Part shown: positions 5,044 through 21,476 of the stretch, one piece after another
Numbering within the stretch: position 1 is the first letter of the stretch
How the letters are laid out: each line of letters begins with the position of its first letter
DNA from: a virus
Taxonomy: Duplodnaviria; Heunggongvirae; Uroviricota; Caudoviricetes
Direction: 5' to 3' (one strand)
DNA: 21,476 nucleotides
IMG/VR virus record: IMGVR_UViG_2526164632_000013
Translations under genes and position numbers: made by a program
The notes under the pieces: model-generated
Told to the model about the DNA's origin: nothing
Database searches by the model: none
The model's input: only the letters and a program-made list of their open reading frames with translations

Positions 5044-5045
5044 AG

Positions 5046-5869: not shown

Positions 5870-5932
5870 GGATATTTATCAGGATTTATCGGTTTCTGCC
5901 CACGGACAGGTTTATCTGTTCTGGTCAGTGAC

Positions 5933-6283
5933 TTAAGGTTGTGATTCCGGAGGAGTCTTCAGAGAACCAGTAATTCTTCCTGGTAGCTTTCCTTTGTAGG
6001 TTATCCACACATTCTGCGCCTCTAAAATTACGGGGCACTTTTCCGGCGACTGCTCATCCCCTTCACATAACCCGGCAGCAACATCCAGGAAGACCTGTCT
6101 GATGCTCCTTCTGGCTGCTGCCTCATAAAACTCCAGCGCGGCACCTTCAACACGGTCCAGCGAGATGTCCAGGTCAAAAATTTCACCGTCAAAGCGTTTT
6201 TTGTCCCGTAACGCTAAAGTTACCGTAACTTTATTCTCAAAATTGCGGATCCCTTTCACAATCAGTTCATAGTTTTGAGTCAT
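5933..6283 (-). CDS. Hypothetical protein between holin and endolysin (the position ydfR occupies in K-12 Qin)
   Basis: 116 aa; GGGGAGAG Shine-Dalgarno 7 nt upstream of the ATG; starts 4 nt after the holin stop. Family not recognised from sequence alone. Confidence 0.65.
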   Translation of the reverse strand: MTQNYELIVKGIRNFENKVTVTLALRDKKRFDGEIFDLDISLDRVEGAALEFYEAAARRSIRQVFLDVAAGLCEGDEQSPEKCPVILEAQNVWITYKGKLPGRITGSLKTPPESQP

Positions 6284-6287
6284 TGAA

Positions 6288-6503
6288 TTACTCTCCCCGT
6301 GCCGCCTTACGACGGTCCTCTCTGATTTTGAAATACAGGTTAGTCAGATATGTCAGCAGCCCAAACAGCAGACTCCCCAGCACGCCTATTGCCGCCCACT
6401 GAGACGGGGAAACCCTGTCCAGCAACTGCAGGAACCAGTAGCCCGTTCCCACCGCTGACGTGGTGTATGACACACCTGTTGTGATTTTTTCCATCTGGTA
6501 CAT
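6288..6503 (-). CDS. S: Pinholin (S21-like class II holin) with dual-start motif
   Basis: 71 aa [71 protein letters not shown], near-identical over the TM and C-terminal regions to phage 21 S as recalled. Met1 and Met4 give the antiholin/holin dual start. The track's longer ORF (to 6608) spans a terminator and is rejected. Confidence 0.9.
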
Positions 6504-6536
6504 ACCCCGTCTCCCGTTATCCGGAAGCTGACAACA

Positions 6537-6568
6537 ATAAAAAAGCCACCAGTTAAGTACTGATGGCT
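6537..6568 (-). terminator. Rho-independent terminator between the esterase gene and the lysis cassette
   Basis: Minus-strand GCCATCAG-tacttaa-CTGGTGGC (8-bp stem) followed by TTTTTTATT. Confidence 0.55.
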
Positions 6569-6652
6569 CTGATAACTCATGCAGGCGTCTCAGACGACCC
6601 ACTGACACTACCGGTGAGTTTAACGATACCTTCCATTTGACTGGCTCACTTT

Positions 6653-8515
6653 TTATGATGATGCCGGTGCATTTATCTCCAGCACCAGACTTTCTATCTC
6701 AACGCCATACGTTGCATTTTTGGTAATATCCGTCAGCGTCAGTGCATTTAGTCCCACTGTCAGACTGTCTTTTATGACCTGGAATGCCGGGCCAGCCACT
6801 CCATTCAGTTTCGGAGTAACCGTGGCACTGCCGGCGGTGAACACCAGCTCCAGCGTCTGCCAGTCGTTACTGTAATTCCCGAACTCGCCCAACTTTGTGT
6901 TTCCTGCTTTCTTGTGATGCATCAGATTCAGTTTGCCGTCTGTGGTCTGGGTGAAGAACGACATCAGGAACGGGTTACCAGTCCCGGTCATCGCCACGAC
7001 GTCAGGTAACGCTACATCGGTATACAGATAAATTCCCAGACCGAACTGGTTGTTGGTCAGTGCGCCTGACAGGCGAAACTTACAGCTCAGTCTGCCACCC
7101 CGTGTCAGCAGGGAGACTGCGTCATCCACCGGGCGCGTCAGGGACCAGGCTTTATTGCTCTGCTTGGTGATCTTAAATACACCATCTGACAACTGAATTC
7201 CGCCATTCTTAATGCTCCAGCCCTGCGCAGCAGCGTCTCCGGCTGTCGGCAACAGGGAGATTGTGCGTATGGATGCATCTTCAGACGGCCCCGATGGCGT
7301 GTCGCCGCCGGGCGAGGGTTTGATTTCCGGTGCCTTACCACTAATGAAGGCTGAGGTGCGCCCGGCTGCGTTCAGAATAGCGGTTGCCATACGATCGGGA
7401 ATAATGCCACGACGCGCCCATGAGCTGAAATGCGTCGGGCGATTTGATGATACCCAGTTTTTGTTCGTTCGGGATGCCGAACCGTAATAACCAGACCCGA
7501 CAATATCAGGATCTTCTGACGGGTTGTTTGTCGGTGTATTAACTCCGCTACCATCGGTCATAAAGGGAACAAAATAAATCTGCTGGGATTCTTTACCTTT
7601 ATATGCACCATATACCACTTCATATTGCGTACCGTGTTCTTGTTTCCACGCGTATGTCGTGTCGCCACAAATCCAGGGGACTGATGCCGGACTTCCACCG
7701 TGACACTGCGCCGCCAGCCCGGCAAGGTCAGCACGGAACTGCTGTACCATTGCAAGAAATGCTGCTGGCTGCTGGGCGTAACTGGCATTCGTCATATCGA
7801 ATTCCCCCTGCATCCAGCATATCGCCAGCAAAACGTTTTTCGGGTTTTTCTGCAATGCTGCCTTCGTGCGGAAAAGCAGATCCTGATATAACGGCTTACC
7901 CACTCCCCAGCGAGCCGAATCCTGACTGGCCCCCGTGGACTCGCTGAATGTCCCCTCCGTGCCCTGGGTGAATGCCGAACCACCACGACAGCATGGTACC
8001 AGCAGGATCCCCGCATTATTAGGGATATACGGAAGCAGTTTTTTGGCAATATGTAAGCCCTGTCCGACACAGCCGTACTGCCCTTTGCTCAGGTCAGCCC
8101 GGGGATGATTAATCGTACTCATATCCTGAACATCATGCAGACAATGGTCAGCAGGAATGATGTCGTTAAATACGCATACTTCACCACCGGGAGTCACTGT
8201 GTTACGACGGGCCAGTTGCTTAATGCGCGGATGGGGCGCATCGTATGAATCCGGAAGCGGAAGCCCTTCACCGTAAGCCATGGCATTAGACTGCCCGGCC
8301 AGTACGATGACGTAGTACCACTCCGGCTCAGTTGCACCACTGACGACCACATCACCTTCTGCGACAATCGCCTGAATAAGTGCTGCGCCATCATCCGTAT
8401 ACGAAGAAAACGGCCCGCCGTATGGTTGCCATCCTTCACGAATTTTTTGAGCAAGTGCATCAGCAAGGTCTGACGGCGATACCGCCCTGACAACATCATA
8501 GTGTTTAAATGCCAT
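6653..8515 (-). CDS. nanS: Prophage sialate O-acetylesterase (NanS-p-like)
   Basis: 620 aa; [24 protein letters not shown]-type esterase motif; GGGAGGA Shine-Dalgarno 3 nt upstream of the ATG; located between the tRNA cluster and the lysis genes, where NanS-p genes sit in Stx-type prophages. Confidence 0.8.
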
Positions 8516-8963
8516 GAATCCTCCCGGCCGGGATAATATTGTGAGTAAAATGAGGAGCGGGCTGAAGTCCGGAAGTTACAGGACAATGGCAGAAGAGAGA
8601 CAACAGCCCGCAATACGAAAAAGGCCGCGCTATTGCGCAGAGTGATTACTGTCGGATATTATTCGCCAGCTGAAATATTACTTCACGTTTTGTTGTTTAT
8701 TCCTTGCCGCCCGCGTCTCCCAGCGCGGGCTTTTTTTGTCCATAAGAAAGCCCCTCCGGAGAGGGGCTGGAGAGTGGCGCTATGTGCCATTGCATGGTGC
8801 CGGGTGCCTCCCGGTGAATTCAGTACCAGCACCTGAATCCGCGATTATCCCATATACCTACTCGCTGATTGCCCCTCCGCACAGGGGGATTCACCATGCC
8901 AGTTTCTTTTAACAAACTCCCCGCAAAACAGACAACTGTCAACCGTCTGAATTGTGAGACATT

Positions 8964-8988
8964 TAAAAAAAAGCCCGCAAAAGCGAGC
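8964..8988 (-). terminator. Rho-independent terminator immediately after the tRNA cluster
   Basis: Minus-strand GCTCGC-tttt-GCGGGC followed by TTTTTTTT. Confidence 0.6.
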
Positions 8989-9003
8989 CAGGGAAAATAA
9001 GTG

Positions 9004-9080
9004 TGGCGCGTTGTACTGGATTCGAACCAGTGACCGATTGCTTAGAAGGCAATTGCTCTGTCCGGCTGAGCTAACAACGC
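9004..9080 (-). tRNA. argO: tRNA-Arg (anticodon UCU)
   Basis: Manual fold: acceptor GCGTTGT/ACAACGC, anticodon stem ATTGC/GCAAT, loop CTTCTAA (anticodon TCT), T-arm GGTTCGAATCC, discriminator G, CCA encoded. Symbol assigned by position, following the ileZ-argN-argO order of Stx-phage late regions. Confidence 0.85.
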
Positions 9081-9093
9081 ATGATGCAGATAA

Positions 9094-9170
9094 TGGACCG
9101 CCATCGGGGACTTGAACCCCGCGCAGCCAGCTTCGAAGGCTGGCGCTCTTTCCTGATGAGCTAATAGCGG
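9094..9170 (-). tRNA. argN: tRNA-Arg (anticodon UCG by manual fold)
   Basis: Acceptor CCGCTAT/ATGGCGG (one G-U pair), anticodon stem CCAGC/GCTGG with loop CTTCGAA (anticodon TCG), T-arm GGGGTTCAAGTCCCC, CCA encoded. Symbol by position only. Confidence 0.75.
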
Positions 9171-9177
9171 TATGTGA

Positions 9178-9253
9178 TGGTGGCCCTTGCTGGATTTGAA
9201 CCAGCGACCTGGCGATTATGAGTCGCTCGCTCTCACCACTGAGCTAAAGGGCC
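9178..9253 (-). tRNA. ileZ: tRNA-Ile2 (anticodon CAU, AUA-reading ileX/ileZ-like)
   Basis: GGCCCTTTAGCTCAGTGGTGAGAGCGAGCGACTCATAATCGCCAGGTCGCTGGTTCAAATCCAGCAAGGGCCACCA is near-identical to E. coli ileX as recalled; anticodon loop CTCATAA. Confidence 0.85.
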
Positions 9254-9293
9254 GGGAGCCGCATAATAACGACGCGTAATTAATTCTTCAATA

Positions 9294-10352
9294 TCATCCG
9301 TTCTGGCTGACTAAATCCTGTACTTCCCGAACCGTCTGCTCAAAACGTTCAGTCTCCAGCTCAACGCCAATTGCACGACGCCCGAGCGCCAGTGCCGCTT
9401 TCACTGTCGAACCCGACCCCATGAAAAAATCTGCAATCAGGTCACCCGGACGACTGCTAGCGCTGATTATCTGCTGCAGCATTTCTGCCGGTTTTTCGCA
9501 CGGATGTTTCCCGGGATAGAACTGCACCGGTTTATGCGTCCACACATCGGTATACGGCACCTGCACCGTCACGCCAAAATACCGCCGCAGATGCTTATAT
9601 TCACTCAGCAGTTCCATATACTGCCGGTTCAGCTCACTGTATGTGCTGACCAGTTGGTAATGGGACTTTTCCAGTTCTCCCCGCTGATGTTTCTCTTCTG
9701 CCACCCGGGCAAACAGCGACTGTAATTTCAGATAATCGCTTTCGTTCGGTAGCTGCCACTGACTGGCACTGAACCAGTGCGACACCATGTTTTTCTTTCC
9801 TGTGGCATCTGCAATCTGTTTTGCCGTTATCCCCAGGGCCGCGCGCGCATCACGAAAGTAAGAAATCAGCGGGGCCATCACATGCTGTTTCAGTGCACTG
9901 CCCTTCGCCGCATACCCGGCATCTTTCGGACGATACGGCCCCTGATAATGTTCCGCGAACAGAATGCGCTCTGTGGCGGGGAAATACGCCCGCAGGCTTT
10001 CCTTGTTGCATCCGTTCCAGCGTCCGGACGGCTTCGCCCAGATAATATGGTTCAGCACACTGAAGCGTTCACGCATCATGATTTCGATATCAGATGCCAG
10101 GCGATGACCACAGAACAGGTAAAGACTTCCGGCAGGTTTCAGCACCCGCCAGAACTGCGCCAGACACTGGTCCAGCCACTTCAGGTAATCATCGTCGCCC
10201 TTCCACTGGTTATCCCAGCCCTCGGGCTTCACTTTAAAGTATGGCGGGTCTGTGACTATCAGATCGACAGAGTTTTCCGGTAAGGTCTGGATAAATTCCA
10301 GGCAATCAGCGTTGATTAACTCACAACTGGATATTTTTACAGCATTAGCCAT
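9294..10352 (-). CDS. Orphan DNA methyltransferase, beta-class amino-MTase (probably N6-adenine)
   Basis: 352 aa; motif IV IVTDPPYF near the N-terminus and motif I FFMGSGST near the C-terminus (CcrM/RsrI-like order); no adjacent restriction endonuclease candidate. Confidence 0.85.
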   Translation of the reverse strand: MANAVKISSCELINADCLEFIQTLPENSVDLIVTDPPYFKVKPEGWDNQWKGDDDYLKWLDQCLAQFWRVLKPAGSLYLFCGHRLASDIEIMMRERFSVLNHIIWAKPSGRWNGCNKESLRAYFPATERILFAEHYQGPYRPKDAGYAAKGSALKQHVMAPLISYFRDARAALGITAKQIADATGKKNMVSHWFSASQWQLPNESDYLKLQSLFARVAEEKHQRGELEKSHYQLVSTYSELNRQYMELLSEYKHLRRYFGVTVQVPYTDVWTHKPVQFYPGKHPCEKPAEMLQQIISASSRPGDLIADFFMGSGSTVKAALALGRRAIGVELETERFEQTVREVQDLVSQNG

Positions 10353-10490
10353 AGATCAATAAGCACTTCTCTGATAGGCTCATACCGCTTTTGCGCAAAG
10401 CAGATGGGCCTGAGGTTTGCTTGTGACCCCAACGCATGAGCAGATGGCTGGCAGGTGCCGCTAACACCCACCAGCCGCCCATTACCACAA

Positions 10491-10516
10491 ATAAAAAAGC
10501 CTTCACTGAGGAAGGC
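10491..10516 (-). terminator. Rho-independent terminator overlapping the stop of the small ORF
   Basis: Minus-strand GCCTTC-ctcagt-GAAGGC followed by TTTTTTATTT; the TGA stop of ORF 10503-10823 lies in the loop. Confidence 0.5.
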
Positions 10517-10823
10517 GTCTGTAACAACCGAACTGATAATCTGCCAGACCCGCCATAACAAGCTGGGTCAGTATTAACTGGCAGCGTTCGCGTGAAAGAT
10601 AAGTGTTCTGCGCAATTTCCCCGGCGGTCGCCGGTTCGGTGACGCTTAATTCATTAAACACCACTCTGGCGGTTTCGGTCATATCCTGCTGTTTTAGCAT
10701 GCCTTTTTCCATTTTCCGGTTAACGTGACATACCAATAACTCTTGTCGAAAAAGCCAGCAAGTTGAAAGACCGGTATTAGCAACCACCAGCGCGTTTAAC
10801 GCCCCGTGCCGTTTTTCAGTCAT
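10503..10823 (-). CDS. Hypothetical small protein, possibly a winged-helix DNA-binding protein; start uncertain
   Basis: 106-aa ORF bracketed by two terminators; the C-terminal half (...ATAGEIAQNTYLSRERCQLILTQLVMAGLADYQ) looks HTH-like. The first ATG lacks a Shine-Dalgarno and abuts the upstream terminator T-run; an internal start (MEKGM.../MLKQQ...) is possible. Confidence 0.4.
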   Translation of the reverse strand: MTEKRHGALNALVVANTGLSTCWLFRQELLVCHVNRKMEKGMLKQQDMTETARVVFNELSVTEPATAGEIAQNTYLSRERCQLILTQLVMAGLADYQFGCYRRLPQ

Positions 10824-10848
10824 AAAAAAACCCGCAAAAAGCGGGCTC
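10824..10848 (-). terminator. tR'-like terminator about 80 nt downstream of the Q-like gene
   Basis: Minus-strand CCCGC-ttttt-GCGGG followed by TTTTTTT; position matches the Q-antiterminated terminator of lambdoid late operons. Confidence 0.6.
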
Positions 10849-10924
10849 TTTCAAATGTCCATGTCTGCTATTCGCCTCGCGGTACAGCTTTGCGAAGCTT
10901 ACCGGAATTGAAGCAGTTTTTACG

Positions 10925-11491
10925 TCAAAAAGCAATAACTTTTTTCTCTATACCAAAAGCCATAACCATTGGTTTGTACAAAATAAATTCTGCCACCTTT
11001 AGCCAATGCTCAATGCGTCTTTCACAGGTTCTTAAACTCCATTCCGGATGTGCATCATTCAGCAGTTCAGCCATTTTGCGCTTAGTCATCCCCCGCCCCA
11101 CATAACGCTGACTCAGAACATTGAGCAGCCCGGGATAACCTGCCAGTACTTCACCAATAACCCTGTCGATTATTAACGCCTCTGAATCGGTACAATGTGC
11201 CAGCCAGCTTTTTTGATTGCCGTTGATCATATCCCGCAAAAAAGCCTCAAGTTCAGGTTTGTCCAGACCCGCTTTTTTCATCCTCCGGAGCGCCTCGTTA
11301 ATTGCCGTTTTTGTCAGCTTTTTAGAGGTCAGTAATTGGTTGAACATATTTCCCGTCTTACCGTCGCCAATATACGACCAACGCCCCCACATACGCAGTT
11401 TCCCCTGGATCCAGACACTTTCCAGCGTTTTCAGGCGTAAATGCTCACCGCTTTTGCCTGTAATTTCCGGGTATATCATATTTATGCTCAC
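10925..11491 (-). CDS. Putative late-gene antiterminator Q (Q82/QuuD-like)
   Basis: 188 aa from a GTG overlapping the rusA stop (or 184 aa from the ATG at 11479); a MWGRWS motif reminiscent of the RWGAWA motif recalled for phage 82 Q; sits between rusA and a tR'-like terminator. Confidence 0.6.
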   Translation of the reverse strand: MSINMIYPEITGKSGEHLRLKTLESVWIQGKLRMWGRWSYIGDGKTGNMFNQLLTSKKLTKTAINEALRRMKKAGLDKPELEAFLRDMINGNQKSWLAHCTDSEALIIDRVIGEVLAGYPGLLNVLSQRYVGRGMTKRKMAELLNDAHPEWSLRTCERRIEHWLKVAEFILYKPMVMAFGIEKKVIAF

Positions 11492-11847
11492 TCACTTTCA
11501 ATTTTGTAAATCTTCACGCCCAGCCGCCCACCAGAAACGAGCTGACCGCGCACAATATTGATTTCATCAAACTGCTCGTCGTCTATAAGTAGTCCGGCAT
11601 GCGTAAGCGCATCCAGTGGTGCCTTCAGGATATTGTCCAGGTCGCGGCGGCGCTTATCCGGTGGCTCTGCAATAATCTTTATCGCCAGCCTTCCGGACAG
11701 GTTTAATTTCAGCCGCTGCTGGCGAACAATAAGTGCCACATCCCGGCGATAACGCTCACCGGCTTTTGACACAAAATATGTGCTGCCACGACGTCGCCAG
11801 TAGGTGTTCACCGTCGGCGGGTAAGGCAAAACAAACTCTATACGCAT
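11488..11847 (-). CDS. rusA: Holliday-junction resolvase RusA
   Basis: 119 aa, MRIEFVLPYPPTVNTYWRRRG...PDKRRRDLDNILKAPLDALTHAGLLIDDEQ, close to E. coli RusA including the DxDN catalytic region; AGAGG Shine-Dalgarno. Confidence 0.9.
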   Translation of the reverse strand: MRIEFVLPYPPTVNTYWRRRGSTYFVSKAGERYRRDVALIVRQQRLKLNLSGRLAIKIIAEPPDKRRRDLDNILKAPLDALTHAGLLIDDEQFDEINIVRGQLVSGGRLGVKIYKIESE

Positions 11848-11859
11848 CAGTAACCTCTT

Positions 11860-12909
11860 TTACCCGAGCACGCCGGTTGCAAAGGCGCGATCAAGAAAAC
11901 GAAAAATTAAATCAATCTGGGAACCATGCTTTTCTTCAAATGCCAGCGGATCAGCATGAAGTTCGTTGTGATGCTCCCGGCACAACGGTAGCGTGAAAAT
12001 ATCGTGGGCTTTTGTCCCTATTCCGCCCTGACCATGACCAATCAGGTGATGGGGATCGTCGGCTGGCTTACCACAACACGCACACGGCTGTGTCTTTACC
12101 CAGCGCGTATATTTCTCATTTACCCAACGGCGACGTTTAGGTCGCTTCATTAAAGATTCCGGAGACTCCGGATCAACAGCAATGCTGACCACCGTCTTTT
12201 CCTGTGGCGGGTTCTGTTGCTGGTGGGCGTGAGGCAGCGGCGCAAGATTTTTTGTGCGCTGTTTCAGTATGCTGGTGGCGGTCTGCTCTCCCGGTACGAT
12301 GTCGCTTTCACGGTACATTGAGCGGATTTTTTCCGCACGCAACCCCAGCGAACGACGTAATACCGCTTCCGGTAGCGCGTCCGCCACCTGATTGCGGATC
12401 GCCCACCAGGATAATTCAGCCAGCGATAATTCCCGTTCCTGCGAGCCATTCATTGCATGGCGTATGACGTCAATCATCCATGCAGACAGGTTTTGGTGAG
12501 CAAGTTGCCCGAGTGATTCGGAGGTCTGGTCGCGCAGCTGGTTGTCGCAGTGCCAGCACAACACCATTGCGCCGGTACCATAACGATGTATGACGGTTTC
12601 ACTGTGATGGTAGTCACCATGAGGCCACTGGCAGGATTTGACATGACGCAGGAGCCAGTCAGACAGTGCGCCAGCGCCGCCAGCAGCACGAATCACACGC
12701 TCATCGCTGAAAAATGGCAGTAATGATTTATCCTCCGCCAGCGGCTGGCGAACGGCAGGGACGACTCCGGACGGCAGACCGCGCATGCTTTTCGGTTCCG
12801 GCTCCACCAGCACCCTGCCGCAATGAAAAACCGGCAGTGATTCGCGACCGGGCTTAAGGACCACCAGCCCGAGTTCCGGTACCAGAACAGGTCGAAGTAA
12901 TACCCGCAC
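11860..12909 (-). CDS. DUF968-family prophage protein (YdfU-like)
   Basis: 349 aa, the same length recalled for K-12 Qin YdfU; Cys/His-rich C-terminus (CACCGKPADDPHHLIGHGQGG...CREHHNELH); GTG start with GGAGG Shine-Dalgarno. Confidence 0.75.
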   Translation of the reverse strand: MRVLLRPVLVPELGLVVLKPGRESLPVFHCGRVLVEPEPKSMRGLPSGVVPAVRQPLAEDKSLLPFFSDERVIRAAGGAGALSDWLLRHVKSCQWPHGDYHHSETVIHRYGTGAMVLCWHCDNQLRDQTSESLGQLAHQNLSAWMIDVIRHAMNGSQERELSLAELSWWAIRNQVADALPEAVLRRSLGLRAEKIRSMYRESDIVPGEQTATSILKQRTKNLAPLPHAHQQQNPPQEKTVVSIAVDPESPESLMKRPKRRRWVNEKYTRWVKTQPCACCGKPADDPHHLIGHGQGGIGTKAHDIFTLPLCREHHNELHADPLAFEEKHGSQIDLIFRFLDRAFATGVLG

Positions 12910-12910
12910 G

Positions 12911-13189
12911 TTACCTCCAGATGCGTTGCTGGAATGTGCGGGACAGACGCGGTGGGCGTTCGGAGTAAGGAAGCCCGACGGAGATTATCCAGTGACGGTA
13001 GTCGAGGCTAAGGGCTTTTTTAACCTCGCATCCGCGCCTGCGGTAACACTGAATGAGCCATTCGGCCTGTTCTTCAGTGCATGGGGGATGCTGGTACCAG
13101 TCTGACTTAAATGCGTGAGAATACCGCTCGTGCGTGTGGGCAAGAACGGTCGAATTATCATGATTGTAATATTTTGCGTTGCGTGCCAT
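12911..13189 (-). CDS. Hypothetical nin-region protein
   Basis: 92 aa; GGAGG Shine-Dalgarno 6 nt upstream of the ATG; its stop is close to the downstream gene start. Confidence 0.6.
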   Translation of the reverse strand: MARNAKYYNHDNSTVLAHTHERYSHAFKSDWYQHPPCTEEQAEWLIQCYRRRGCEVKKALSLDYRHWIISVGLPYSERPPRLSRTFQQRIWR

Positions 13190-13255
13190 CGGTTTCCTCC
13201 GGCGGCACGGTGTTACTCAGCGGGAGTTCAGCCCCGCGCAAGATTGTAGATGAGT

Positions 13256-13507
13256 TTATTCTTCTGAAAAAGCAGAAAAGCCAGCTTTTATTCCGATCTC
13301 TTTCAGTGCCTGTAATGAAGTGACAAACTCACCTTCGCGCAAGATAAATCCGTCTGTCACTCGACCATCCACAAAATTAATTAACGCAGCCCCATTCTTT
13401 CGCAAACACACAATGCGGTAATGACTAACAATATTTCCATTTTCAACGCACACAGCATAGAGGCCATCTTCACAAAAAATTTTACGCAGTTCTTCGATGT
13501 TCATCAT
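13256..13507 (-). CDS. Hypothetical protein, Rem-like by size and position
   Basis: 83 aa, directly downstream of hok as rem is downstream of hokD in K-12 Qin; GGAAGGA Shine-Dalgarno. Family not confirmed by sequence. Confidence 0.55.
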   Translation of the reverse strand: MMNIEELRKIFCEDGLYAVCVENGNIVSHYRIVCLRKNGAALINFVDGRVTDGFILREGEFVTSLQALKEIGIKAGFSAFSEE

Positions 13508-13610
13508 CAGAATCCTTCCGGATAATTAGCTCTCCCCTTTAAGGGACCATCCCTCTTATCCCTGCGCGCTACTTAAGTATTTTTGATTCTATTCCGACAC
13601 CGTCCAGAAC

Positions 13611-13646
13611 TTCAAATGCGTTGAAAATAAAAACAAAAACCCGCCG
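13611..13646 (-). terminator. Rho-independent terminator of the hok transcript
   Basis: Minus-strand AACCCGC-ttcg-GCGGGTT followed by TTTTGTTTTTATTTT. Confidence 0.6.
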
Positions 13647-13723
13647 AAGCGGGTTAAGTGCGGGTGCGTTGAGGATGCCTGACACATCAGCGGTGGCGAG
13701 GGATTTCTCCCCCGCCTGGTCTC

Positions 13724-13879
13724 TTACTCCTCAGGTTCGTAAGCTGTGAAGACAGCGACCTCCGTCTGGCCGGTTCGGATTCGTACCTCGCAGAGGTCTT
13801 TCCTCGTTACCAGTGCCGTCACTATGACGGTTAAACAGATGACGATCAGGGCGATTAACATCGCCTTTTGCTGCTTCAT
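13724..13879 (-). CDS. hok: Hok/Gef-family type I toxin (HokD/RelF-like)
   Basis: 51 aa MKQQKAMLIALIVICLTVIVTALVTRKDLCEVRIRTGQTEVAVFTAYEPEE, the Hok family signature; AAGGAG Shine-Dalgarno. An in-frame upstream ATG (13936) with its own Shine-Dalgarno gives a 70-codon mok-like frame. Confidence 0.85.
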   Translation of the reverse strand: MKQQKAMLIALIVICLTVIVTALVTRKDLCEVRIRTGQTEVAVFTAYEPEE

Positions 13880-14090
13880 AGCCTGCTTCTCCTTGCCTTT
13901 CGGCGCGTAAGAGGCTAACCTACGTTTGTGAAGCATAGATTGGGCCTCAGATTAATGTTAAGCGTCTTGCAGGACGCGTAATGTTAACTGGGGCTTTTCT
14001 CTGTCTGCCTTACGGTGGCATGCCCGAGGCAGACAGCCTCAAGCACCCGCAGCAATTCTACTTAACTCCCGTCACCTCGCCAATATAAAA

Positions 14091-14180
14091 TCAATCAGAA
14101 AGGCGATCCATAAGAACAATAGCAAGACAATAAATTGCCACTACAGCCGCAATAGCCAGCGCGCATTTGAGAACCAGCAC
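14091..14180 (-). CDS. 29-codon hydrophobic ORF with strong RBS (hypothetical small membrane peptide)
   Basis: AGGAGG then 5 nt then GTG; (M)LVLKCALAIAAVVAIYCLAIVLMDRLSD; 70 nt downstream of the SIR2-like gene on the same strand. Not in the ORF track (under 60 aa). Confidence 0.35.
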   Translation of the reverse strand: MLVLKCALAIAAVVAIYCLAIVLMDRLSD

Positions 14181-14250
14181 GATAACCTCCTGTATTGGAC
14201 GTACACCAGCTCTGATAAATATGAGGCTGCCTCTTTAACTTCGCATTGCG

Positions 14251-15282
14251 CTACCAATCAATAAAATCAGTGATGTTATCCAACCTAATTACAGTAACTT
14301 CCCGTCTCAACTGGTTTTTCCAATATATCTCACGAGCGTTTTGTTCACCAGCACCGCTCCACTCAATTACTCTTAAAGGCTTAGAGGTTAGGTAAGGTCG
14401 AATAAGCAGGTTAAGGTGAATATCGAGACCAGAGTAACCAAACAATATTATTTCTTCTGATTCAAATAATGCAAACTGCAAATAATCCCAGTACGTAGAA
14501 AGAACATTAGATGCTGCTATAACTGACGGTTTTCTTTTTATATGAGTTAACACTATATGCTCACTAGGTTCATCTATGTCAAGAGTAAGTTGTGAGCGTG
14601 AAAGTTTTAAAACATTTTCATGCTGATTAATAAATAGTGGTGAACCATGCAAGTGCAAATAATAACCAAACCTACGATTGTATTTCCGTTCGAGCGCTGC
14701 AGAGGAAAATCCGTGGCTTAGCATCCCATCAACTAAAACCCCATCATACCCGTTGAATATATCATTATCTATGAATGAATTGTATAATAATTTGTCATAG
14801 TTTAATGTCGCGATATGTGAGTGTGTGTTCTTTACAAACTCCACAAGCGCATTTTCGAATCTTTGTGGCAAACCTTTATCGTAATTATGCAACCTGGTTG
14901 CAACTTTGTGAATATAAGTGGCGGTAATTTTGGGGAAGTTTAGTCCATCTTCAGTAAGCCAATGCACGTTCCCCTCTCCAATTTGAGCAAGAGCTTTACA
15001 ATATGTGACAGCCTGGTGAAGGGTATCCAACTCATGTTCTCCTTCTGGTGGACCTTGCCGCTGAAGACAACGCTCGATAAGTTGCTTGTGGATATCTTTT
15101 AAAAAATTGGGGCGATGCCAAATTTCTTCCAACGCTCTGTCTAAGGAGAAGTGAGCAGGATCTAAAGCCATACCGAGACCGTTGCCGAATATTATTAATT
15201 TTCTTGCCATATAGGGGGACTCATATTGGAATAACGCTGGATAGCGTCGCGCGATACGCTTAAGTTTAGGATTAATAGACAT
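14251..15282 (-). CDS. Standalone SIR2-like (SIR2_2-type) protein, candidate NADase defence effector
   Basis: 343 aa with the ordered motif set of defence-type SIR2 domains as recalled from ThsA: IIFGNGLGMA (Gly-rich NAD loop), IATLNYDKLL (TNYD-type, putative catalytic Asn161), YYLHLHGS (putative catalytic His212), ILFGYSGLD. No other domain. The gene and its 370-bp upstream region are visibly AT-rich compared with flanking phage genes (not computed). Confidence 0.8.
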   Translation of the reverse strand: MSINPKLKRIARRYPALFQYESPYMARKLIIFGNGLGMALDPAHFSLDRALEEIWHRPNFLKDIHKQLIERCLQRQGPPEGEHELDTLHQAVTYCKALAQIGEGNVHWLTEDGLNFPKITATYIHKVATRLHNYDKGLPQRFENALVEFVKNTHSHIATLNYDKLLYNSFIDNDIFNGYDGVLVDGMLSHGFSSAALERKYNRRFGYYLHLHGSPLFINQHENVLKLSRSQLTLDIDEPSEHIVLTHIKRKPSVIAASNVLSTYWDYLQFALFESEEIILFGYSGLDIHLNLLIRPYLTSKPLRVIEWSGAGEQNAREIYWKNQLRREVTVIRLDNITDFIDW

Positions 15283-15650
15283 TCCGTTTGATTACTCTTG
15301 TTATTACAAACTTGCATGCAAAGAAGCCCAAGCTGTTAGGTAAACAGAGACCGCAGTGGCAAGATAATCTAGATATAGCCTATAAAATCCAACAACAAAT
15401 AGCGGCCTGTTTTCTATGACTTTTCTTTTCCCTAAATATCGCTTATCTAATAAAATGCAATAATGTATTGCACAGTATTTAATGTGTATTAATATAGATA
15501 AGTATTGGTCTTATTTGATAACAAATCCTGAGCCTCAAAATGTCTGCTTTTCACACAAAACCAACAAGTAGGCTATTTTTAGCTCTGTGCCGCGAAAATG
15601 TCAATTCATATCCGAACCAATACTCTTTAATTTCATTACCTGTGACAATT

Positions 15651-16058
15651 CTAGGCATATCCCTGATAGAACGCCAATACACGCTGCATAACTTCGCTCT
15701 TCCGGCACTCGCGACAGATTATGTTCATACGCCTGTCGTAGCGGCGTATTTCTCCGTCGGGTAATGTCCAGATAAGGCCCGGATCAACCACAACAGGTTT
15801 CTTCACCTTTGCCCTCGAGAGTTTTTTGCGGGCGTTTTGCCAGTCCTTACGAGCCCGTTCTGACGGGAACACCCCATAGCCAGAGTGATATACATCACCA
15901 CTGGCAACCAGCTCTCTGGCAAGAACGCTCATCAGATATCTTGTCGCACCTGTTTTAGCTTCCAGTTGCCGTAACGTCTCACGACCGCTCTGGCGCACGA
16001 GTTCCACCACCTGTCCTTTAATTTTTTCCCGCTCTTCCTGTGTAAATACTTTTGCCAT
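15651..16058 (-). CDS. Hypothetical protein downstream of the replication initiator
   Basis: 135 aa; AGGAGG Shine-Dalgarno 4 nt upstream of the ATG; basic, with a CRECRK motif. Not recognisable as a helicase loader. Confidence 0.6.
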   Translation of the reverse strand: MAKVFTQEEREKIKGQVVELVRQSGRETLRQLEAKTGATRYLMSVLARELVASGDVYHSGYGVFPSERARKDWQNARKKLSRAKVKKPVVVDPGLIWTLPDGEIRRYDRRMNIICRECRKSEVMQRVLAFYQGYA

Positions 16059-16098
16059 AAGTCCTCCTGAACATTACTTTATGCCCTAAAATCACCAC

Positions 16099-17118
16099 TT
16101 ATCCCCTGAAACCAGGCGGAATTTCGGTATCCGGTTCAGAAATATGATTCACACAACACTGTACAGGTGAACGCCCCAGGCGGATGACCAGGTCGTCCCA
16201 TTTTTCGCGAAGCTTTGACGGGCTCATGATGTTTTTTACCCAGAATGGATCTCGCTGTACCCGACCAAACATTTCGCAAATTTGTCTGTGGCTTCTGCCA
16301 TCCAGCATCCGCATTGTGCGCACGTCATTGGCCCATGCGGTCCAGTTTGGTTCTTTCGGTCGCGTGATCTCGCCATCATCGCTGGCAGCCTGCTCGTAAA
16401 GACTCACGATTCGTCCCCAGATCCACTGTGCGCACGCCAAATCTTCCTGACTTCCCCACTGGCGTTTTTTCGCACTGAACACAACCGCGTCAGGGTGTCG
16501 GGTTAAAAAATCCTGTTCAGCCGTCTGCGGGTCCGGTTGCGAAGCTTCCGGACGAGAAGTGTTTTTATTCTCTGTAGTAATCTCTGTTGTATTCTCTGTA
16601 AGATCATCAGGCCATTTTGACCCGATGACATTGGGTCGTTTTGAACCAATGGAGCGTGCCATTTTGACCTCTTCCATCGTGTCATTTTGACCCGATGGAG
16701 CGGCGCATTTTGACCTGATGGATTCGCTCACTTTGCCACCATCTAAAAGCTCACTCTCGTAATTAATCGTGTAAAAATTAGTCATATCACGCTTTGATTT
16801 GTTGAGCTTTTCGCAACGCAAAAGCCCCAGCGTTTTCAGACTTGCAAATGCGCGTTTTAACGTTGACTCTGACCAGAACGGGAACTGTTCCAGCCATTGT
16901 TCTGTTGTGTTATAAATCCAGCGAACCCCGTCACATTCCATACCGGAACTGGTATCTCTCAACCAGTAATGCAACTGCTGCAACACAATGGCTTCATTTA
17001 AGCCAATCTTCATCGCAAGCTGTGTGTTTATAACCAGTGGGCGTTCAGCAAAAAGAAGGCTCATAATTCCATCCAGCTTTTTGTTGGTATTGCTGACGAT
17101 ACGCATGCTTGAAAGCAA
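16099..17118 (-). CDS. Replication initiator / replisome organiser (lambda O-like) containing the origin iterons
   Basis: 339 aa; N-terminal HTH-like region (PLVINTQLAMKIGLNEAIVLQQLHYWL...TLKRAFASLKTLGLL); central repetitive segment (TENTTEITTENKNT) encoded by DNA repeats; six 23-bp iterons inside the coding sequence. Start uncertain (17118, 17103 or 17064). Confidence 0.75.
   Translation of the reverse strand: MLSSMRIVSNTNKKLDGIMSLLFAERPLVINTQLAMKIGLNEAIVLQQLHYWLRDTSSGMECDGVRWIYNTTEQWLEQFPFWSESTLKRAFASLKTLGLLRCEKLNKSKRDMTNFYTINYESELLDGGKVSESIRSKCAAPSGQNDTMEEVKMARSIGSKRPNVIGSKWPDDLTENTTEITTENKNTSRPEASQPDPQTAEQDFLTRHPDAVVFSAKKRQWGSQEDLACAQWIWGRIVSLYEQAASDDGEITRPKEPNWTAWANDVRTMRMLDGRSHRQICEMFGRVQRDPFWVKNIMSPSKLREKWDDLVIRLGRSPVQCCVNHISEPDTEIPPGFRG
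16611..16740. repeat. Origin of replication iterons: six 23-bp-spaced repeats, core CATTTTGACC
   Basis: Cores at about 16613, 16637, 16660, 16683, 16706 and 16729 (CATTTTGACCC, CGTTTTGAACC, CATTTTGACCT, CATTTTGACCC, CATTTTGACCT, CACTTTGCCACC), flanked at 16741-16815 by an AT-rich stretch; the layout matches ori-lambda inside O. Confidence 0.7.
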
Positions 17119-17566
17119 TAGCTTTTTCTATAAGCTCGTCAGTCTCACGTTCCACAACAGATGGATCCGCAAAAAGCAGCCCGGACTCCACCACATCACC
17201 ATATTCTTTGTTTAACCCGGCGATCATGTACGTAATGCTTTTTCCGTCAGTAATTTCACAATACAACCTGAAATCGCTGATCCGGATAGCCTCCATAATT
17301 GCCGGAATCAGCGCCGTGAATTTTTCCCGCTTATCCCTGGTGTCGATAGCTTTCCAGCGTTCGAATATCTTCACCCGGTTAACGCCCAACGCCCGTTGAT
17401 CAACCTCGCCATCATTAAACGTGACGCGTTGAACATCGATGTTCGGGCGTTCTTTCAGAGCCCAGAATGCTTCCGTGATTAATATCGTCGCCTGCTCCTG
17501 TGTCATTCCTGGTCGGCATACCCAGGCATCCAGAGCCTCACAAACCTGTTCAGGGGTGATTTTCAT
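17045..17566 (-). CDS. Hypothetical early protein (cII-position gene)
   Basis: 173 aa; ATG start overlaps the end of the cro-like gene by 17 nt; family not recognised. Confidence 0.55.
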   Translation of the reverse strand: MKITPEQVCEALDAWVCRPGMTQEQATILITEAFWALKERPNIDVQRVTFNDGEVDQRALGVNRVKIFERWKAIDTRDKREKFTALIPAIMEAIRISDFRLYCEITDGKSITYMIAGLNKEYGDVVESGLLFADPSVVERETDELIEKAIAFKHAYRQQYQQKAGWNYEPSFC

Positions 17567-17777
17567 TGTTCAACCGCCCCGCCCGCTTTGCCTTACGATA
17601 TTCGTCATAAACTTTGGGGTCGTACTGAAGTTCCCCGCCGGATGCCTCTTGCAGGCGCATCGCGCGACCTTCAGGAACCAGTTCCCCCCATGCAGCAACA
17701 CTTGCCAGTTTCACTCCTGCGGCATTGGCAAGTTTTGTTTTGCTGCCAAAAAAAGTAATTGCGTCAACTTTAAGCAT
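17550..17777 (-). CDS. dicC: Cro-like regulator (DicC-like)
   Basis: 75 aa from the ATG at 17777 (a TTG one codon upstream gives 76); GAGGGGG Shine-Dalgarno; divergent from the DicA-like repressor; size as recalled for DicC (76 aa). Confidence 0.75.
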   Translation of the reverse strand: MLKVDAITFFGSKTKLANAAGVKLASVAAWGELVPEGRAMRLQEASGGELQYDPKVYDEYRKAKRAGRLNNENHP

Positions 17778-17780
17778 CAA

Positions 17781-17857
17781 AGCCCCCTCTTGTTAGATAT
17801 TCCTAACAGTAATGTGCGCGGGATACCTAAGTCAAGAAAAATTAGAATTACCTAACT
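17781..17857. promoter_or_regulatory. Divergent dicA/dicC control region with operator-like inverted repeat TGTTAG-N6-CTAACA
   Basis: 77-bp intergenic region between divergent regulator genes; inverted repeat at about 17792-17809; same half-site as the sites downstream of dicA. Confidence 0.5.
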
Positions 17858-18265
17858 ATGGATACAAGAACCCTAGGCCAGCGAGTTCTGGCACGACGAA
17901 AAGAATTACGCCTAACACAACGAGAAGCTGCACGCCTCGCTGGGGTAGCTCACGTCACAATTTCACAATGGGAAAGAGACGAAACCCAACCGGTCGGGAA
18001 GCGGTTATTTGCTTTAGCTGATGCGCTGAAGTGCTCGCCTACATGGCTAATGTTTGGTGACGAAGACAAGGCACCAGTGCCAGCACAAGAACTTCATGTG
18101 GAAACCGAGTTAACTCCCAGCCACAAAGAATTGATCGAATTATTCGATGCTCTTCCCTCCTCCGAGCAGGAAGCCTTACTGTCTGAAATGCGCGCAAGAG
18201 TAGAGAATTTCAATAAACTCTTCGAAGAAATGCTTAAAGCACGTAAAAACAAATCAATAAAATAA
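17858..18265 (+). CDS. dicA: XRE-family HTH repressor (DicA-like)
   Basis: 135 aa; HTH LRLTQREAARLAGVAHVTISQWERDETQP; C-terminal ...SPTWLMFGDEDK...MRARVENFNKLFEEMLKAR resembles DicA as recalled; 135 aa is the size recalled for DicA. Confidence 0.8.
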   Translation: MDTRTLGQRVLARRKELRLTQREAARLAGVAHVTISQWERDETQPVGKRLFALADALKCSPTWLMFGDEDKAPVPAQELHVETELTPSHKELIELFDALPSSEQEALLSEMRARVENFNKLFEEMLKARKNKSIK

Positions 18266-18296
18266 CACTCCTTTCAGATACTTAGATTCCCTCACT

Positions 18297-18355
18297 CTTT
18301 TTGTTAGACCAATCTAACAAAAATACTTGCTACATTTGTTAGGTTATTCTAAATT
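18297..18355 (+). promoter_or_regulatory. Promoter/operator of the dicB operon
   Basis: Perfect palindrome TTGTTAGA-ccaa-TCTAACAA (18301-18320) and a further TTTGTTAG (about 18335-18342) overlapping a sigma70-like promoter TTGCTA-N17-TAAATT (18327-18355), just upstream of the ydfA-like gene. Confidence 0.55.
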
Positions 18356-18432
18356 AATCTCCACCAAGACACCGCACGGTGTTCTCAGCAAACAGTTCCG
18401 CTACCCCGGCGTTAAGGGGAAATGAGGTCAGC

Positions 18433-18588
18433 ATGAATACTATCGATCTTGGCAACAACGAATCTCTGGTATGCGGCGTGTTTCCCAACCAGGACGGCAC
18501 GTTTACCGCGATGACGTATACCAGAAGCAAAACGTTTAAAACCGAAAATGGTGCCCGTCGCTGGCTGGAAAGAAACTCAGGTGAGTGA
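18433..18588 (+). CDS. ydfA: YdfA-like small protein (first gene of dicB operon)
   Basis: 51 aa from the ATG at 18433 (TGAGGT Shine-Dalgarno); size and position match ydfA of K-12 Qin as recalled; sequence MNTIDLGNNESLVCGVFPNQDGTFTAMTYTRSKTFKTENGARRWLERNSGE. Confidence 0.65.
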   Translation: MNTIDLGNNESLVCGVFPNQDGTFTAMTYTRSKTFKTENGARRWLERNSGE

Positions 18589-18589
18589 T

Positions 18590-18718
18590 ATGGATTTCGA
18601 CACAATCATGGAAAAGGCTTACGAAGAATACTTCGAAGGCCTTGCCGAAGGCGAAGAAGCTCTCAGCTTCAGTGAGTTTAAACAGGCGCTTTCCAGCTCG
18701 GCAAAATCTAACGGCTGA
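18590..18718 (+). CDS. ydfB: YdfB-like small acidic protein
   Basis: 42 aa MDFDTIMEKAYEEYFEGLAEGEEALSFSEFKQALSSSAKSNG; ATG 1 nt after the ydfA-like stop (TGATATG); not in the ORF track (under 60 aa); 42 aa is the size recalled for YdfB. Confidence 0.6.
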   Translation: MDFDTIMEKAYEEYFEGLAEGEEALSFSEFKQALSSSAKSNG

Positions 18719-18747
18719 TAAGCGAAGCAGCACCGCGAGGAATCAGT

Positions 18748-18966
18748 ATGCAGAAACGAGAACCCGTCATCATCTCGCCAGACTATACCGATGATGAACT
18801 TTATGAGTGGATGCGCCAGAAAATTAATGCAGCGCAGGATCTGAAATGGGCCAATGAAGCCAGGGCTAAGCAGGCTGAAAATCTGTCCGCTCTGGAGCAG
18901 GATATCACCAGGCTGGAAAAAGCAGCGGCATTAAGCATTGCCAGAATGATTACATACCCGCGTTAA
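18748..18966 (+). CDS. ydfC: YdfC-like protein
   Basis: 72 aa; GAGG Shine-Dalgarno; size and order match ydfC as recalled. Confidence 0.6.
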   Translation: MQKREPVIISPDYTDDELYEWMRQKINAAQDLKWANEARAKQAENLSALEQDITRLEKAAALSIARMITYPR

Positions 18967-19306
18967 TAGCTAACCAACGAAGCTAAGGTTGGTAATTAAG
19001 GAGTTCTCCACGGGTGAGGTGGAGTGCGTGCGCCGGACATGGGTGAGCATCCGGCACTGACAGTTTACTGAAAGGATATTTCCATGAAAAGTCAGACCAT
19101 AACGCGAAAGCGCACGGCGAGGTAGCTGGTTCATAGATAGCCTGTCGTTAAATTTTCGTCGACCGTGCGCTTCCGGTTGTGGCACTCCGCGAAATGGCGC
19201 GGCGGTAAGTATGGCGGGGTTATTCCTTCCCCGTTGAGGACACCGGGTTGTCAGGTTGACCATACGCTTAAGCGACAACCCCGCTGCAACGCCCTCTGTT
19301 ATCAAT

Positions 19307-19364
19307 TTTCTGGTGACGTTTGGCGGTATCAGTTTTACTCCGTGACTGCTCTGCCGCCGTTTTT
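19307..19364 (+). ncRNA. dicF: DicF small regulatory RNA (ftsZ-targeting)
   Basis: TTTCTGGTGACGTTTGGCGGTATCAGTTTTACTCCGTGACTGCTCTGCCGCC followed by GTTTTT matches the 53-nt DicF sequence as recalled; lies in a 570-bp non-coding gap between the ydfC-like and dicB-like genes, as in Qin. Confidence 0.8.
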
Positions 19365-19532
19365 AAAGTGAATTTTGTGATGCGGTGAATGCGGCTGAGC
19401 GCACGCGGAACAGTTAAAACCAAAACAGTGTTATGGGTGGATTCTCTGTATCCGGCGTTAATTGTTAACTGGTTAACGTCACCTGGAGGCACCAGGCACC
19501 ACATCACAAAATTCATTGTTGAGGACGCGATA

Positions 19533-19721
19533 ATGGAAACGTTATTACCAAACGTTAATACGTCTGAAGGTTGTTTTGAAATTGGTGTCACTATCAGTAA
19601 CCCTGTATTTACTGAAGATGCCATTAACAAGAGAAAACACGAACGGGAGCTATTAAATAAAATATGCATTCTTTCAATGCTGGCCCGTTTACGTCCGATA
19701 CAAAAAGGATGCTGGCAATGA
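19533..19721 (+). CDS. dicB: DicB-like cell-division inhibitor
   Basis: 62 aa METLLPNVNTSEGCFEIGVTISNPVFTEDAINKRKHERELLNKICILSMLARLRPIQKGCWQ; GAGGA Shine-Dalgarno; immediately downstream of DicF; 62 aa is the size recalled for DicB. Confidence 0.75.
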   Translation: METLLPNVNTSEGCFEIGVTISNPVFTEDAINKRKHERELLNKICILSMLARLRPIQKGCWQ

Positions 19722-19909
19722 ATACAGCATTTGCACTTGTTCTGACAGTTTTTCTTGTTTCCGGAGAGCCAGTTGATATTGCAGTCAGTGTTCACAGGAC
19801 AATGCAGGAGTGTGTGACTGCAGCAACCGAACAGAAAATTCCCGGTAACTGTTACCCGGTCGATAAAGTTATTCACCAGGATAATAACGAAATCCCGGCA
19901 GGTCTTTAA
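19718..19909 (+). CDS. ydfD: YdfD-like small membrane/lysis protein
   Basis: 63 aa MNTAFALVLTVFLVSGEPV... with an N-terminal hydrophobic segment; ATGA overlap with the dicB-like stop; 63 aa is the size recalled for YdfD. Confidence 0.7.
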   Translation: MNTAFALVLTVFLVSGEPVDIAVSVHRTMQECVTAATEQKIPGNCYPVDKVIHQDNNEIPAGL

Positions 19910-20000
19910 AACAGTTCCGTAATAAACATCCGGTTTCATTCTTATATGCCAGCAATGGCAGGGATTTGTTCACCCTTAAATCTGTAATGAGGTAAAACAA

Positions 20001-21476
20001 AATGAGTAAAGTCTTTATTTGCGCTGCTATTCCTGATGAACAGGCCATAAAAGAAGATAGCGCTGTTGCGGTGGCCACTGCCATTGAAGCTGGTGATGAG
20101 CGTCGCGCACGCGCAAAATTTCATTGGCAATTTCTGGAGCAATTCCCTGCAGCTCAGGACTGCGCTTATAAATTTATTGTCTGTGAGGATAAACCCGGCA
20201 TACCCCGCCCTGCCCTCGATTCCTGGGATGCTGAATATATGCAGGAAAACCGCTGGGATGAGGAGTCTGCTTCCTTTGTCCCGGTTGAGACTGAATCCGA
20301 TCCGATGAACGTCACTTTTGACAAGCTGGCCCCTGAAGTACAGAACGCTGTCATGGTTAAGTTCGACACATGTGAAAACATCACCGTTGATATGGTTATT
20401 AGCGCACAGGAATTGTTGCAGGAAGACATGGCAACATTCGACGGACATATCGTTGAAGCGTTGATGAAAATGCCAGAAGTTAACGCCATGTATCCGGAGC
20501 TTAAGCTGCATGCCATCGGGTGGGTTAAGCATAAATGTAAGCCTGGTGCCAAATGGCCCGAAATTCAGGCAGAGATGCGCATCTGGAAAAAACGTCGCGA
20601 AGGTGAACGCAAGGAAACCGGAAAATACACGTCTGTTGTTGATCTCGCCCGCGCCAGAGTCAATCAACAGCACACTGAAAATTCAACAGGAAAAATCAGC
20701 TTGGTCATTGCTGCCATTCATCGCGAATACAAGCAGACATGGAAAACACTGGATGACGAACTGGCCTACGCTCTCTGGCCTGGTGATGTGGATGCCGGAA
20801 ACATTGACGGCAGCATCCATCGCTGGGCAAAAAATGAAGTTATCGACAACGGCCGCGAAGACTGGAAGCGTATCTCGGCATCAATGCGCAAACAGCCTGA
20901 TGCCCTTCGCTACGACCGCCAGACTATTTTTGGCCTTGTCCGTGAACGTTCGATCGACATTCACAAAGATCCCGTAGCACTGAACAAATATATCTGCGAA
21001 TACCTGACGACAAAGGGCGTGTTTGAGAATGAAGAAACAGACCTGGGCACTGTTGATGTTCTCCAGTCATCAGAAACACAAACTGATGCAGTGGAAACTG
21101 AGGTATCTGATATCCCAAAAAATGAAACCGCGCCGGAAGCTGAACCATCTGTAGAGCGTGAGGGGCCGTTCTACTTCCTCTTCACCGACAAGGATGGCGA
21201 AAAATACGGTCGCGCAAACAAACTTTCTGGTCTGGATAAGGCGCTGTCTGCTGGGGCTACTGAAATCACGAAAGAAGAATATTTCGCCCGCAAAAACGGT
21301 ACATACTCAGGTTCACAACAAAATACTGGTGCATCTGACACGACCGCACAACCAGGGTCAGTAAAAGTTACCGCTGACGAAGTAAACAAAATTATGCAGG
21401 CAGCCAATATCAGCCAGCCTGACGCCGATGAACTGCTTGCAGTATCACGTGGTGAATTTGTTGAAGGGATTAGCGA
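20001..21476 (+). CDS. Large ORF of unknown function (the position ydfE occupies in Qin), 3'-partial; at least 492 codons
   Basis: Translated by hand from the ATG at 20001: no stop to the window end (MSKVFICAAIPDEQAIKEDSAVAVATAIEAGDE ... acidic linker ETDLGTVDVLQSSETQTDAVETEVSDIPKNETAPEAEPSVEREGP ... GEFVEGIS). Absent from the ORF track, presumably because no in-window stop exists. The antisense track ORFs 19942-20673 and 20166-20552 are low-complexity and rejected. Confidence 0.7.

Follow-up and report, generated by a model that had tools for sequence, protein, structure and literature searches.

The DNA analysed here, referred to throughout as the window, is a stretch of 21,476 nucleotides (nt) from a tailed-phage (Caudoviricetes) record in IMG/VR, IMGVR_UViG_2526164632_000013; its subject is a long open reading frame (ORF) that runs off the right-hand end. 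Upstream of the frame, all on the plus strand, lie a gene for a DicA-like repressor (17858–18265; 135 amino acids, aa), whose counterpart regulates the same operon in the Qin prophage of Escherichia coli K-12 (10.1101/2024.09.21.614188), the small RNA (sRNA) DicF (19308–19359; RF00039, 72.5 bits), dicB (19533–19721, 62 aa) and ydfD (19718–19909; 63 aa, DUF1482), which overlaps the stop of dicB. The initial annotation placed the frame after ydfD in the dicB operon, and the positions of DicF, dicB and ydfD (19308–19909) confirm this.

The frame begins with the ATG at 20002–20004 (local sequence aaATGagt) and continues for 491 complete sense codons and two leftover bases to the end of the window at 21476; it constitutes the 5' part of a YdfE-family prophage exonuclease gene on the plus strand. 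The initial annotation had described an ORF of at least 492 codons starting at 20001. The frame itself is real, but the start is off by one base and the codon count by one: translation of the frame that starts at 20001 is full of stops. An in-frame TAA at 19993–19995, two codons before the ATG, makes 20002 the earliest possible start, and a Shine–Dalgarno-like GAGG (19989–19992, plus strand) lies 9 nt before it. The stretch 20002–21476 contains no stop in this frame, in keeping with the earlier description of an uninterrupted frame to the last base. Only one of the six frames is open over this span, the other five containing 8–53 stops, and at the given base composition the probability of 491 open codons arising by chance is 5.6e-12. 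The codon differences from the closest paralogue divide into 26 synonymous and 10 non-synonymous, which points to purifying selection. Scans for promoters and terminators around the gene gave matches at chance level only. The ORF is a real gene. It had been reported as absent from the ORF track, and indeed everything listed for this region is antisense or a short ORF in another frame; the frame is missing because the listing tool omits ORFs that run off an end.

Over residues 1–257 the predicted protein is identical to K-12 YdfE at 245 of 257 positions (95%). The K-12 gene (b1577) is a Qin pseudogene found at the same locus, after dicB–ydfD, and with the same start, MSKVFICAAIPDE; the K-12 protein diverges exactly at the insertion point of IS2E, which corresponds to approximately position 20768 in the window. 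In K-12, IS2E interrupts ydfE near codon 256, after which the frame runs on into the insertion sequence (IS), whereas the window copy remains in frame for at least 235 codons more. On the strength of this alignment the window gene is the uninterrupted counterpart of K-12 ydfE. That much had been proposed at the outset; the accompanying statement, that the gene is known mainly as a pseudogene, was overstated, for the intact form is common.

The 1,475 nt of the window gene match 4,445 of 5,426 complete E. coli genomes, and 3,537 of the 5,426 contain at least 80% of the length of the closest relative's gene (2,472 nt), often in several copies. In complete genomes these are mostly annotated as intact coding sequences (CDSs) under the names 'exonuclease', '3'-5' exonuclease' or '3'-5' exoribonuclease domain-containing protein', and the gene is found also in viable lambdoid phages (Tritos, HannyBb, mEp460_ev081, Evi, PhiR42_1 and PPompW phages). 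A search of a large protein database returned 7,300 homologues; among the top 120, every full-length protein (798–830 aa, at least 90% identical) carries the three families PF27430 (YdfE_N), PF27432 (YdfE_C) and PF16473 (Rv2179c-like). The assignment of YdfE_N and YdfE_C is taken from the precomputed annotation of these relatives; a Pfam and NCBIfam scan of the window fragment itself gave nothing above threshold, with a Pfam set that did not include the YdfE_N and YdfE_C models. PHROG 2082 ('exonuclease', 823 positions) covers the fragment from end to end (positions 1–491, E = 0). The annotated prophage and phage 'exonucleases' (WP_000048399.1 and WP_000048381.1 in E. coli FDAARGOS_1059, TRITO_27 of Tritos and the 'exodeoxyribonuclease of CP-933P') belong to the same family, have the same neighbours and share the same architecture over the part that is seen; the full-length members show 93–98% protein identity to the window fragment. 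They differ from the window allele in that the latter is a recombinant of two such copies, with its 3' 40% beyond the window. The intact YdfE-type gene is thus already known, with PHROG and Pfam families of its own and annotation in thousands of genomes. Disrupted copies occur as well. The copy in Shigella flexneri SFBU0723 (L020, 6001–8320) is broken into many short ORFs and is a decayed pseudogene; others are interrupted by IS2 (K-12) or IS1203 (O157:H7 TW14359), frameshifted (2014C-3061), or split into pieces of 65, 420 and 298 aa (L006).

An AlphaFold2 model of the window fragment, built with 47 diverse homologues, has a mean predicted local distance difference test score (pLDDT) of 82.7 and a predicted template modelling score of 0.39; the domains score above 90 and the linkers below 50. 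According to this model the window encodes a non-catalytic front: four small, confidently predicted domains on disordered, partly acidic linkers. Domain 1 (aa 1–97; 20002–20292), a small alpha/beta unit, and domain 2 (aa 101–206; 20302–20619), which is helical, are both part of YdfE_N, and domain 2 holds most of the family-invariant residues (A135, H149, M163, I172, W185, P186 and W195). A disordered linker (aa 207–240; 20620–20721) separates them from the helical domain 3 (aa 241–340; 20722–21021), the first stretch shared with RecE (RecE approximately 278–355), which is also present in RecE-like proteins of Klebsiella, Salmonella and HK225 phages. Next comes the acidic linker remarked on in the initial annotation: residues 343–386 (21028–21159) contain 13 D/E against 2 K/R and are predicted to be disordered, the model placing this linker at aa 346–382. 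The small beta/alpha domain 4 (aa 387–435; 21160–21306) bears the motif EREGPFYFLF...GRANKL, and R386, G399, R404 and I422 are nearly invariant. Beyond a further disordered linker (aa 439–456), helices at aa 458–491 (21373–21474) mark the start of the region strongly shared with RecE. For the N-terminal 630 aa, a PDB sequence search turned up no relative of solved structure.

What follows the window end can be read from a proxy, the copy L001 (2,472 nt, 823 aa), carried by a second prophage of E. coli FDAARGOS_1059. If the window gene resembles L001, then the window portion represents the 5' ~60% of the gene and some 999 nt are missing. From 20852 onward, the window and L001 agree at every base (the last ~625 nt, 100% identical). 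In L001 the last 180 residues form a DEDD 3'-5' exonuclease domain (PF16473 at aa 642–813, E = 5e-67), with the DEDDh motifs MIDLET (644), NFDNTIL (744) and RHNALDDA (795), and the only solved relative of this head is DexA of phage T4 (8KEL, E = 6e-8). Between the window end and the head, relatives contain the sequence DPNDPKW, a CxxC...CxxC zinc ribbon and a second acidic linker. The window ends at residue 491, so none of the DEDD domain lies inside it; we infer a DEDD head for the window copy because L001 is identical from 20852 onward and no close relative has any other head. The window copy would then continue through the Cys4 zinc ribbon and second acidic linker into a DEDDh head of the Rv2179c/T4 DexA type.

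The relationship to RecE of the Rac prophage (866 aa; nuclease domain 3H4R) is real and partial. RecE occupies the same prophage map position as the window gene and, like the YdfE-type protein, consists of a long non-catalytic front and a C-terminal nuclease; the two share a non-catalytic central region of the Pfam Exonuc_VIII type, with 39% identity over ~370 aa. By BLASTP, aa 262–626 align with RecE 278–592 (E = 3e-62), most strongly over the zinc ribbon and acidic linker just past the window end, and the window holds the first part of this shared region (aa ~245–491). The differences lie on either side of it: the first ~250 residues of RecE are RecE_N, against YdfE_N in the window gene, and RecE has a 5'-3' head of the PD-(D/E)XK type and a RecT partner, against a DEDD 3'-5' head and no RecT in the close relatives. 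No match to RecE 601–866, the PD-(D/E)XK nuclease, was found in the proxy or close relatives, the result applying to the window copy by way of the proxy. The RecE equivalog model NF007259, with a cutoff of 1269 bits, scores the window fragment at 70.5 bits and the full-length proxy at 269.3 bits, and the match is confined to model positions 271–603 of 877. Furthermore, recT is absent after the gene in L001, L003, L016, L018 and L019, while in the controls (Rac and HK225; L005 and L017) a true recE is followed by recT.

The front encoded in the window is not tied to one head. Relatives of the fragment are few, with only 185 among 1.84 billion representative proteins searched exhaustively, and a species-level genome scan with a 12-sequence alignment gave 11 loci, all in Enterobacterales. 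The long representatives were classified using domain probes for front and head. YdfE_N fronts are joined to the DEDD head in 2 cases, to the RecE-type PD-(D/E)XK head in 5 and to a third head in 17, with 6 unassigned; the corresponding numbers for RecE_N fronts are 6, 4 and 1, with 3 unassigned. The third head is a Rad52-like annealase. YdfE_N-fronted fusions of this kind (PHROG 2489, labelled 'exonuclease') are found in prophages of Enterobacter, Pantoea, Erwinia, Superficieibacter and Pseudescherichia; they share the N-terminal module (31–41% identity over aa 1 to ~460) and differ in ending with a Rad52/Mgm101-like single-strand annealing head and a coiled-coil tail, and the next gene, which overlaps them, is a Gp157 / 'Mu Gam-like end protection' gene. 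From the pairings and the fusions it follows that the module in the window is a non-catalytic unit which phages join to three different DNA-end or recombination activities. At the dicB–ydfD locus the exchange involves fronts as well as heads.

Two groups of variants were noted in passing. In L007 and in L010 (12265–14706) there is an 813-aa variant that combines a RecE-type front (Pfam Exonuc_VIII) with the same DEDD head; its slot has the same DicA repressor and the same dicB–ydfD neighbours, and representatives P0145, P0236, P0240, P0250, P0254 and P0264 are of the same type. In six long YdfE_N-fronted representatives (P0126, P0221, P0244, P0249, P0251 and P0267) the C-terminal ~200–250 aa have no match to the three heads, Pfam or PDB sequences. 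They may carry a fourth kind of head, or truncation may account for some of them.

Taken together, these data suggest that the window contains the front of an intact YdfE gene, the last gene of the early left operon of a defective Qin-like lambdoid prophage, and that the gene encodes a DEDD-headed protein of ~823 residues that would act as a stand-alone DNA-end nuclease built on a targeting module. We assign this explanation as a whole a probability of roughly 70%. The gene order it supposes is dicA – ydfABC – dicF – dicB – ydfD – exonuclease gene – xis/int; the window displays the upstream half of the expected position (dicB–ydfD), and the xis/int side is read from relatives, with xis/int directly downstream in all those examined (L001, L003, Tritos, E. 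ruysiae and E. albertii). The prophage is considered defective because its terminase large-subunit gene is split by ISEc22, an IS66-family element at ~337–2790 (tnpA/tnpB/transposase; 512-aa ORF at 1214–2752).

The N-terminal module most probably acts as a portable platform, a scaffold or targeting device by which a head that processes DNA ends reaches its substrate or partner; in the window gene, a DexA-like head would trim the 3' ends of DNA. In the lysogen the DicA-type repressor would keep the gene switched off, with expression following induction, and the protein would probably then function in end processing or in degradation of host or competitor DNA. It is probably not part of a two-component recombinase of the RecET type, because no annealing protein is encoded adjacent to it. 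More tentative still is the generalisation, which we think has perhaps rather less than an even chance of being correct, that the YdfE_N/YdfE_C module, a relative of the N-terminal two-thirds of RecE, is a portable targeting or assembly platform that temperate phages of enterobacteria combine freely with exonucleases of either polarity (3'-5' or 5'-3') or with a Rad52-like annealase. The N-terminal domain of RecE has been described as being 'of unknown function', yet it enhances linear–linear recombination (PMC11611040). Were the generalisation true, identifying the ligand of the module (DNA ends, SSB, RecBCD, the replisome or a phage partner) would solve the puzzle of why full-length RecE, and not the nuclease domain alone, promotes linear–linear recombination; it would further reveal the task of a solitary 3'-5' DNase that occupies the recombination slot in the commonest E. 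coli prophages, perhaps a DexA- or EcD-like attack on foreign or host DNA.

Several observations count against this explanation. The window ends before the catalytic domain, the stop codon and the genes that follow, and both the head type and the intactness of the window copy are read from relatives. The window copy is possibly an assembly chimera, and related copies are frameshifted or IS-disrupted, that of L002 among them, as with L006, K-12, L020 and TW14359. A Foldseek comparison of the AlphaFold2 model with the PDB gave no match with E < 1, and the family has no invariant polar residues that hint at an active site or a known binding motif. We found no functional study of a YdfE-family protein in the searchable literature. 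The scaffold or targeting role itself draws solely on domain shuffling and the analogy with RecE.

The likeliest alternative concerns the allele rather than the gene: assembly may have fused two paralogous prophage genes into a chimeric open frame, an allele absent from any cell. From 337 to 17800 the window is 100.0% identical to E. coli FDAARGOS_1059 and to O111:H2 strain 12A; the left 336 bases (1–336) are unmatched in the FDAARGOS_1059 genome, the break falling at the end of ISEc22. Within the gene region, the upstream informative sites (19501–20702) match L003, the copy in the corresponding FDAARGOS_1059 prophage, at 41 of 41 positions, and the downstream sites (20852–21464, approximately 65) all match L001. 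Comparison of informative sites places the switch in a 150-nt tract on the plus strand, 20703–20851, in which L003 and L001 are identical. A single clean switch from one type to the other, between parents that reside together in a genome 100.0% identical over 337–17800, favours a misassembly, and the window ends ~620 nt past the junction just as its left end (1–336) departs at an IS boundary. No L003/L001 junction was found in the 5,426 complete E. coli genomes, the best junction-spanning match being 99.1%; megablast against the same genomes gave at best 97.3% for the gene and 98.1% for 17800–21476, and none of ten loci encoding an identical DicA protein is identical over the gene. Homologous exchange between co-resident lambdoid prophages, however, gives exactly such a pattern; the join is in frame, and a private synonymous single-nucleotide polymorphism at 20701 means that the source is not simply the reference strain. 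Gene conversion between the two prophages and a chimeric assembly close to the contig end are the two explanations of the junction, and we regard the latter as a serious possibility, with odds of about one in three. Identification of the gene and of its frame is unaffected, because both parental copies are intact members of one family.

A further possibility is that the window copy, like K-12 ydfE, is a pseudogene or truncated remnant, interrupted shortly after the window end by an IS or repeat that breaks the assembly. The prophage is already defective, its terminase gene being split by ISEc22, several genomes hold related copies with a frameshift or an inserted IS, and the window end falls inside the gene. 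Against this, the 491 intact codons extend well beyond the K-12 break at codon ~256, the 26 to 10 excess of synonymous changes suggests purifying selection, and the copies of at least 80% length in 3,537 of 5,426 genomes are mostly annotated as intact CDSs. Moreover, the stretch after the window end is common to several paralogues and to recE, and this alone accounts for the contig break. We consider a remnant improbable.

Equally doubtful is a reading in which the full-length protein is an HREX-type anti-phage (superinfection-exclusion) nuclease, with a head that destroys the modified DNA of T-even phages, for example DNA containing 5-hydroxymethylcytosine (5hmC), and a front that regulates or targets it. 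T4 DexA (8KEL), the stand-alone E. coli homologue EcD and PF16473 are homologous to the catalytic head of the close relatives of the window gene. T4 DexA and EcD discriminate 5hmC DNA, and EcD, which digests 5hmC DNA and not unmodified DNA, protects against T4 (PMC12153337, 2025). The prophage also carries defence-type cargo, a SIR2 gene here and Kiwa or RelBE in the same spot elsewhere. On the other hand, DexA and EcD are single-domain proteins of ~200–230 aa with no counterpart of the 630-aa front. We rejected the idea that the EcD of the HREX study is the same gene, since the primers (MIDTET...TIPETYD) show a different stand-alone protein. The equivalent of DexA D90 is Asp in the proxy and Ala in EcD (PMC12153337), and it is the loss of this tetramer-forming Asp that defines the dimer-only state of EcD (PMC12153337), whereas the YdfE family retains it; the residues that recognise 5hmC (Trp/Asp) fall outside the stretch alignable with DexA. 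A gene in a repressor-controlled early operon is also expected to be off in a lysogen, and viable temperate phages keep the same gene. A defence role for a YdfE-type exonuclease is possible but unsupported.

Finally, that the gene is a true RecE (exonuclease VIII), a 5'-3' double-stranded DNA exonuclease working with the RecT annealase in RecET-type recombination, is very improbable, for despite its recE-like position relative to Rac, its homology to RecE residues 278–592, the many database records that label such genes 'exodeoxyribonuclease VIII' and the existence of proteins that join a YdfE_N front to a PD-(D/E)XK head (for example P0129, P0175, P0213 and P0242), it falls far below the NF007259 cutoff (70.5 bits for the window and 269 for the proxy against 1269), the last ~625 nt of the window are identical to a DEDD-headed copy, all relatives at least 90% identical carry the DEDD head, and no close relative has recT downstream. 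Of the RecE-like role guessed from position in the initial annotation, the homology to RecE 278–592 stands and the remainder does not, given the equivalog score, the DEDD head and the absence of recT. On sequence grounds, then, the window gene is not RecE, and to file it as exonuclease VIII, the label with which YdfE-type genes are routinely mislabelled, is inappropriate.

As a gene call the frame adds little, since thousands of E. coli genomes, and phages too, have it annotated already; it mainly exposes a blind spot of the ORF track for frames that run off the window and a coordinate slip of one base. The gene nevertheless ranks among the most widespread of E. coli prophage genes, some two-thirds of complete genomes carrying it, frequently in multiple copies, and it has in common with RecE a large module whose role has been a puzzle since the dissection of RecE. 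The residual interest lies in this shared N-terminal module and its three interchangeable heads: the pattern of head swapping offers a concrete and testable handle on it.

Elsewhere in the window, a SIR2-family gene (343-aa ORF, 14251–15282, minus strand) sits in a variable cargo slot flanked by hokD/sok (sok at 13874–14048) and a DUF977 gene (15651–16058). In prophages with an identical DicA the same slot carries Kiwa KwaA/KwaB and QueH (L011, L012 and L015), a Beta_protein gene (L006), a Peptidase_M78/HTH pair (L009) or RelBE (K-12 Qin); it looks like a hotspot for defence genes. Three phage-borne tRNA genes (9007–9253, minus strand; Arg, Arg and Ile according to the annotation of the identical reference) and a match to the sRNA STnc100 (139 bits; 8738–8928, minus strand) lie between a DNA methyltransferase gene and a DUF6645/SASA gene. 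Both ends of the window sit at repeats.

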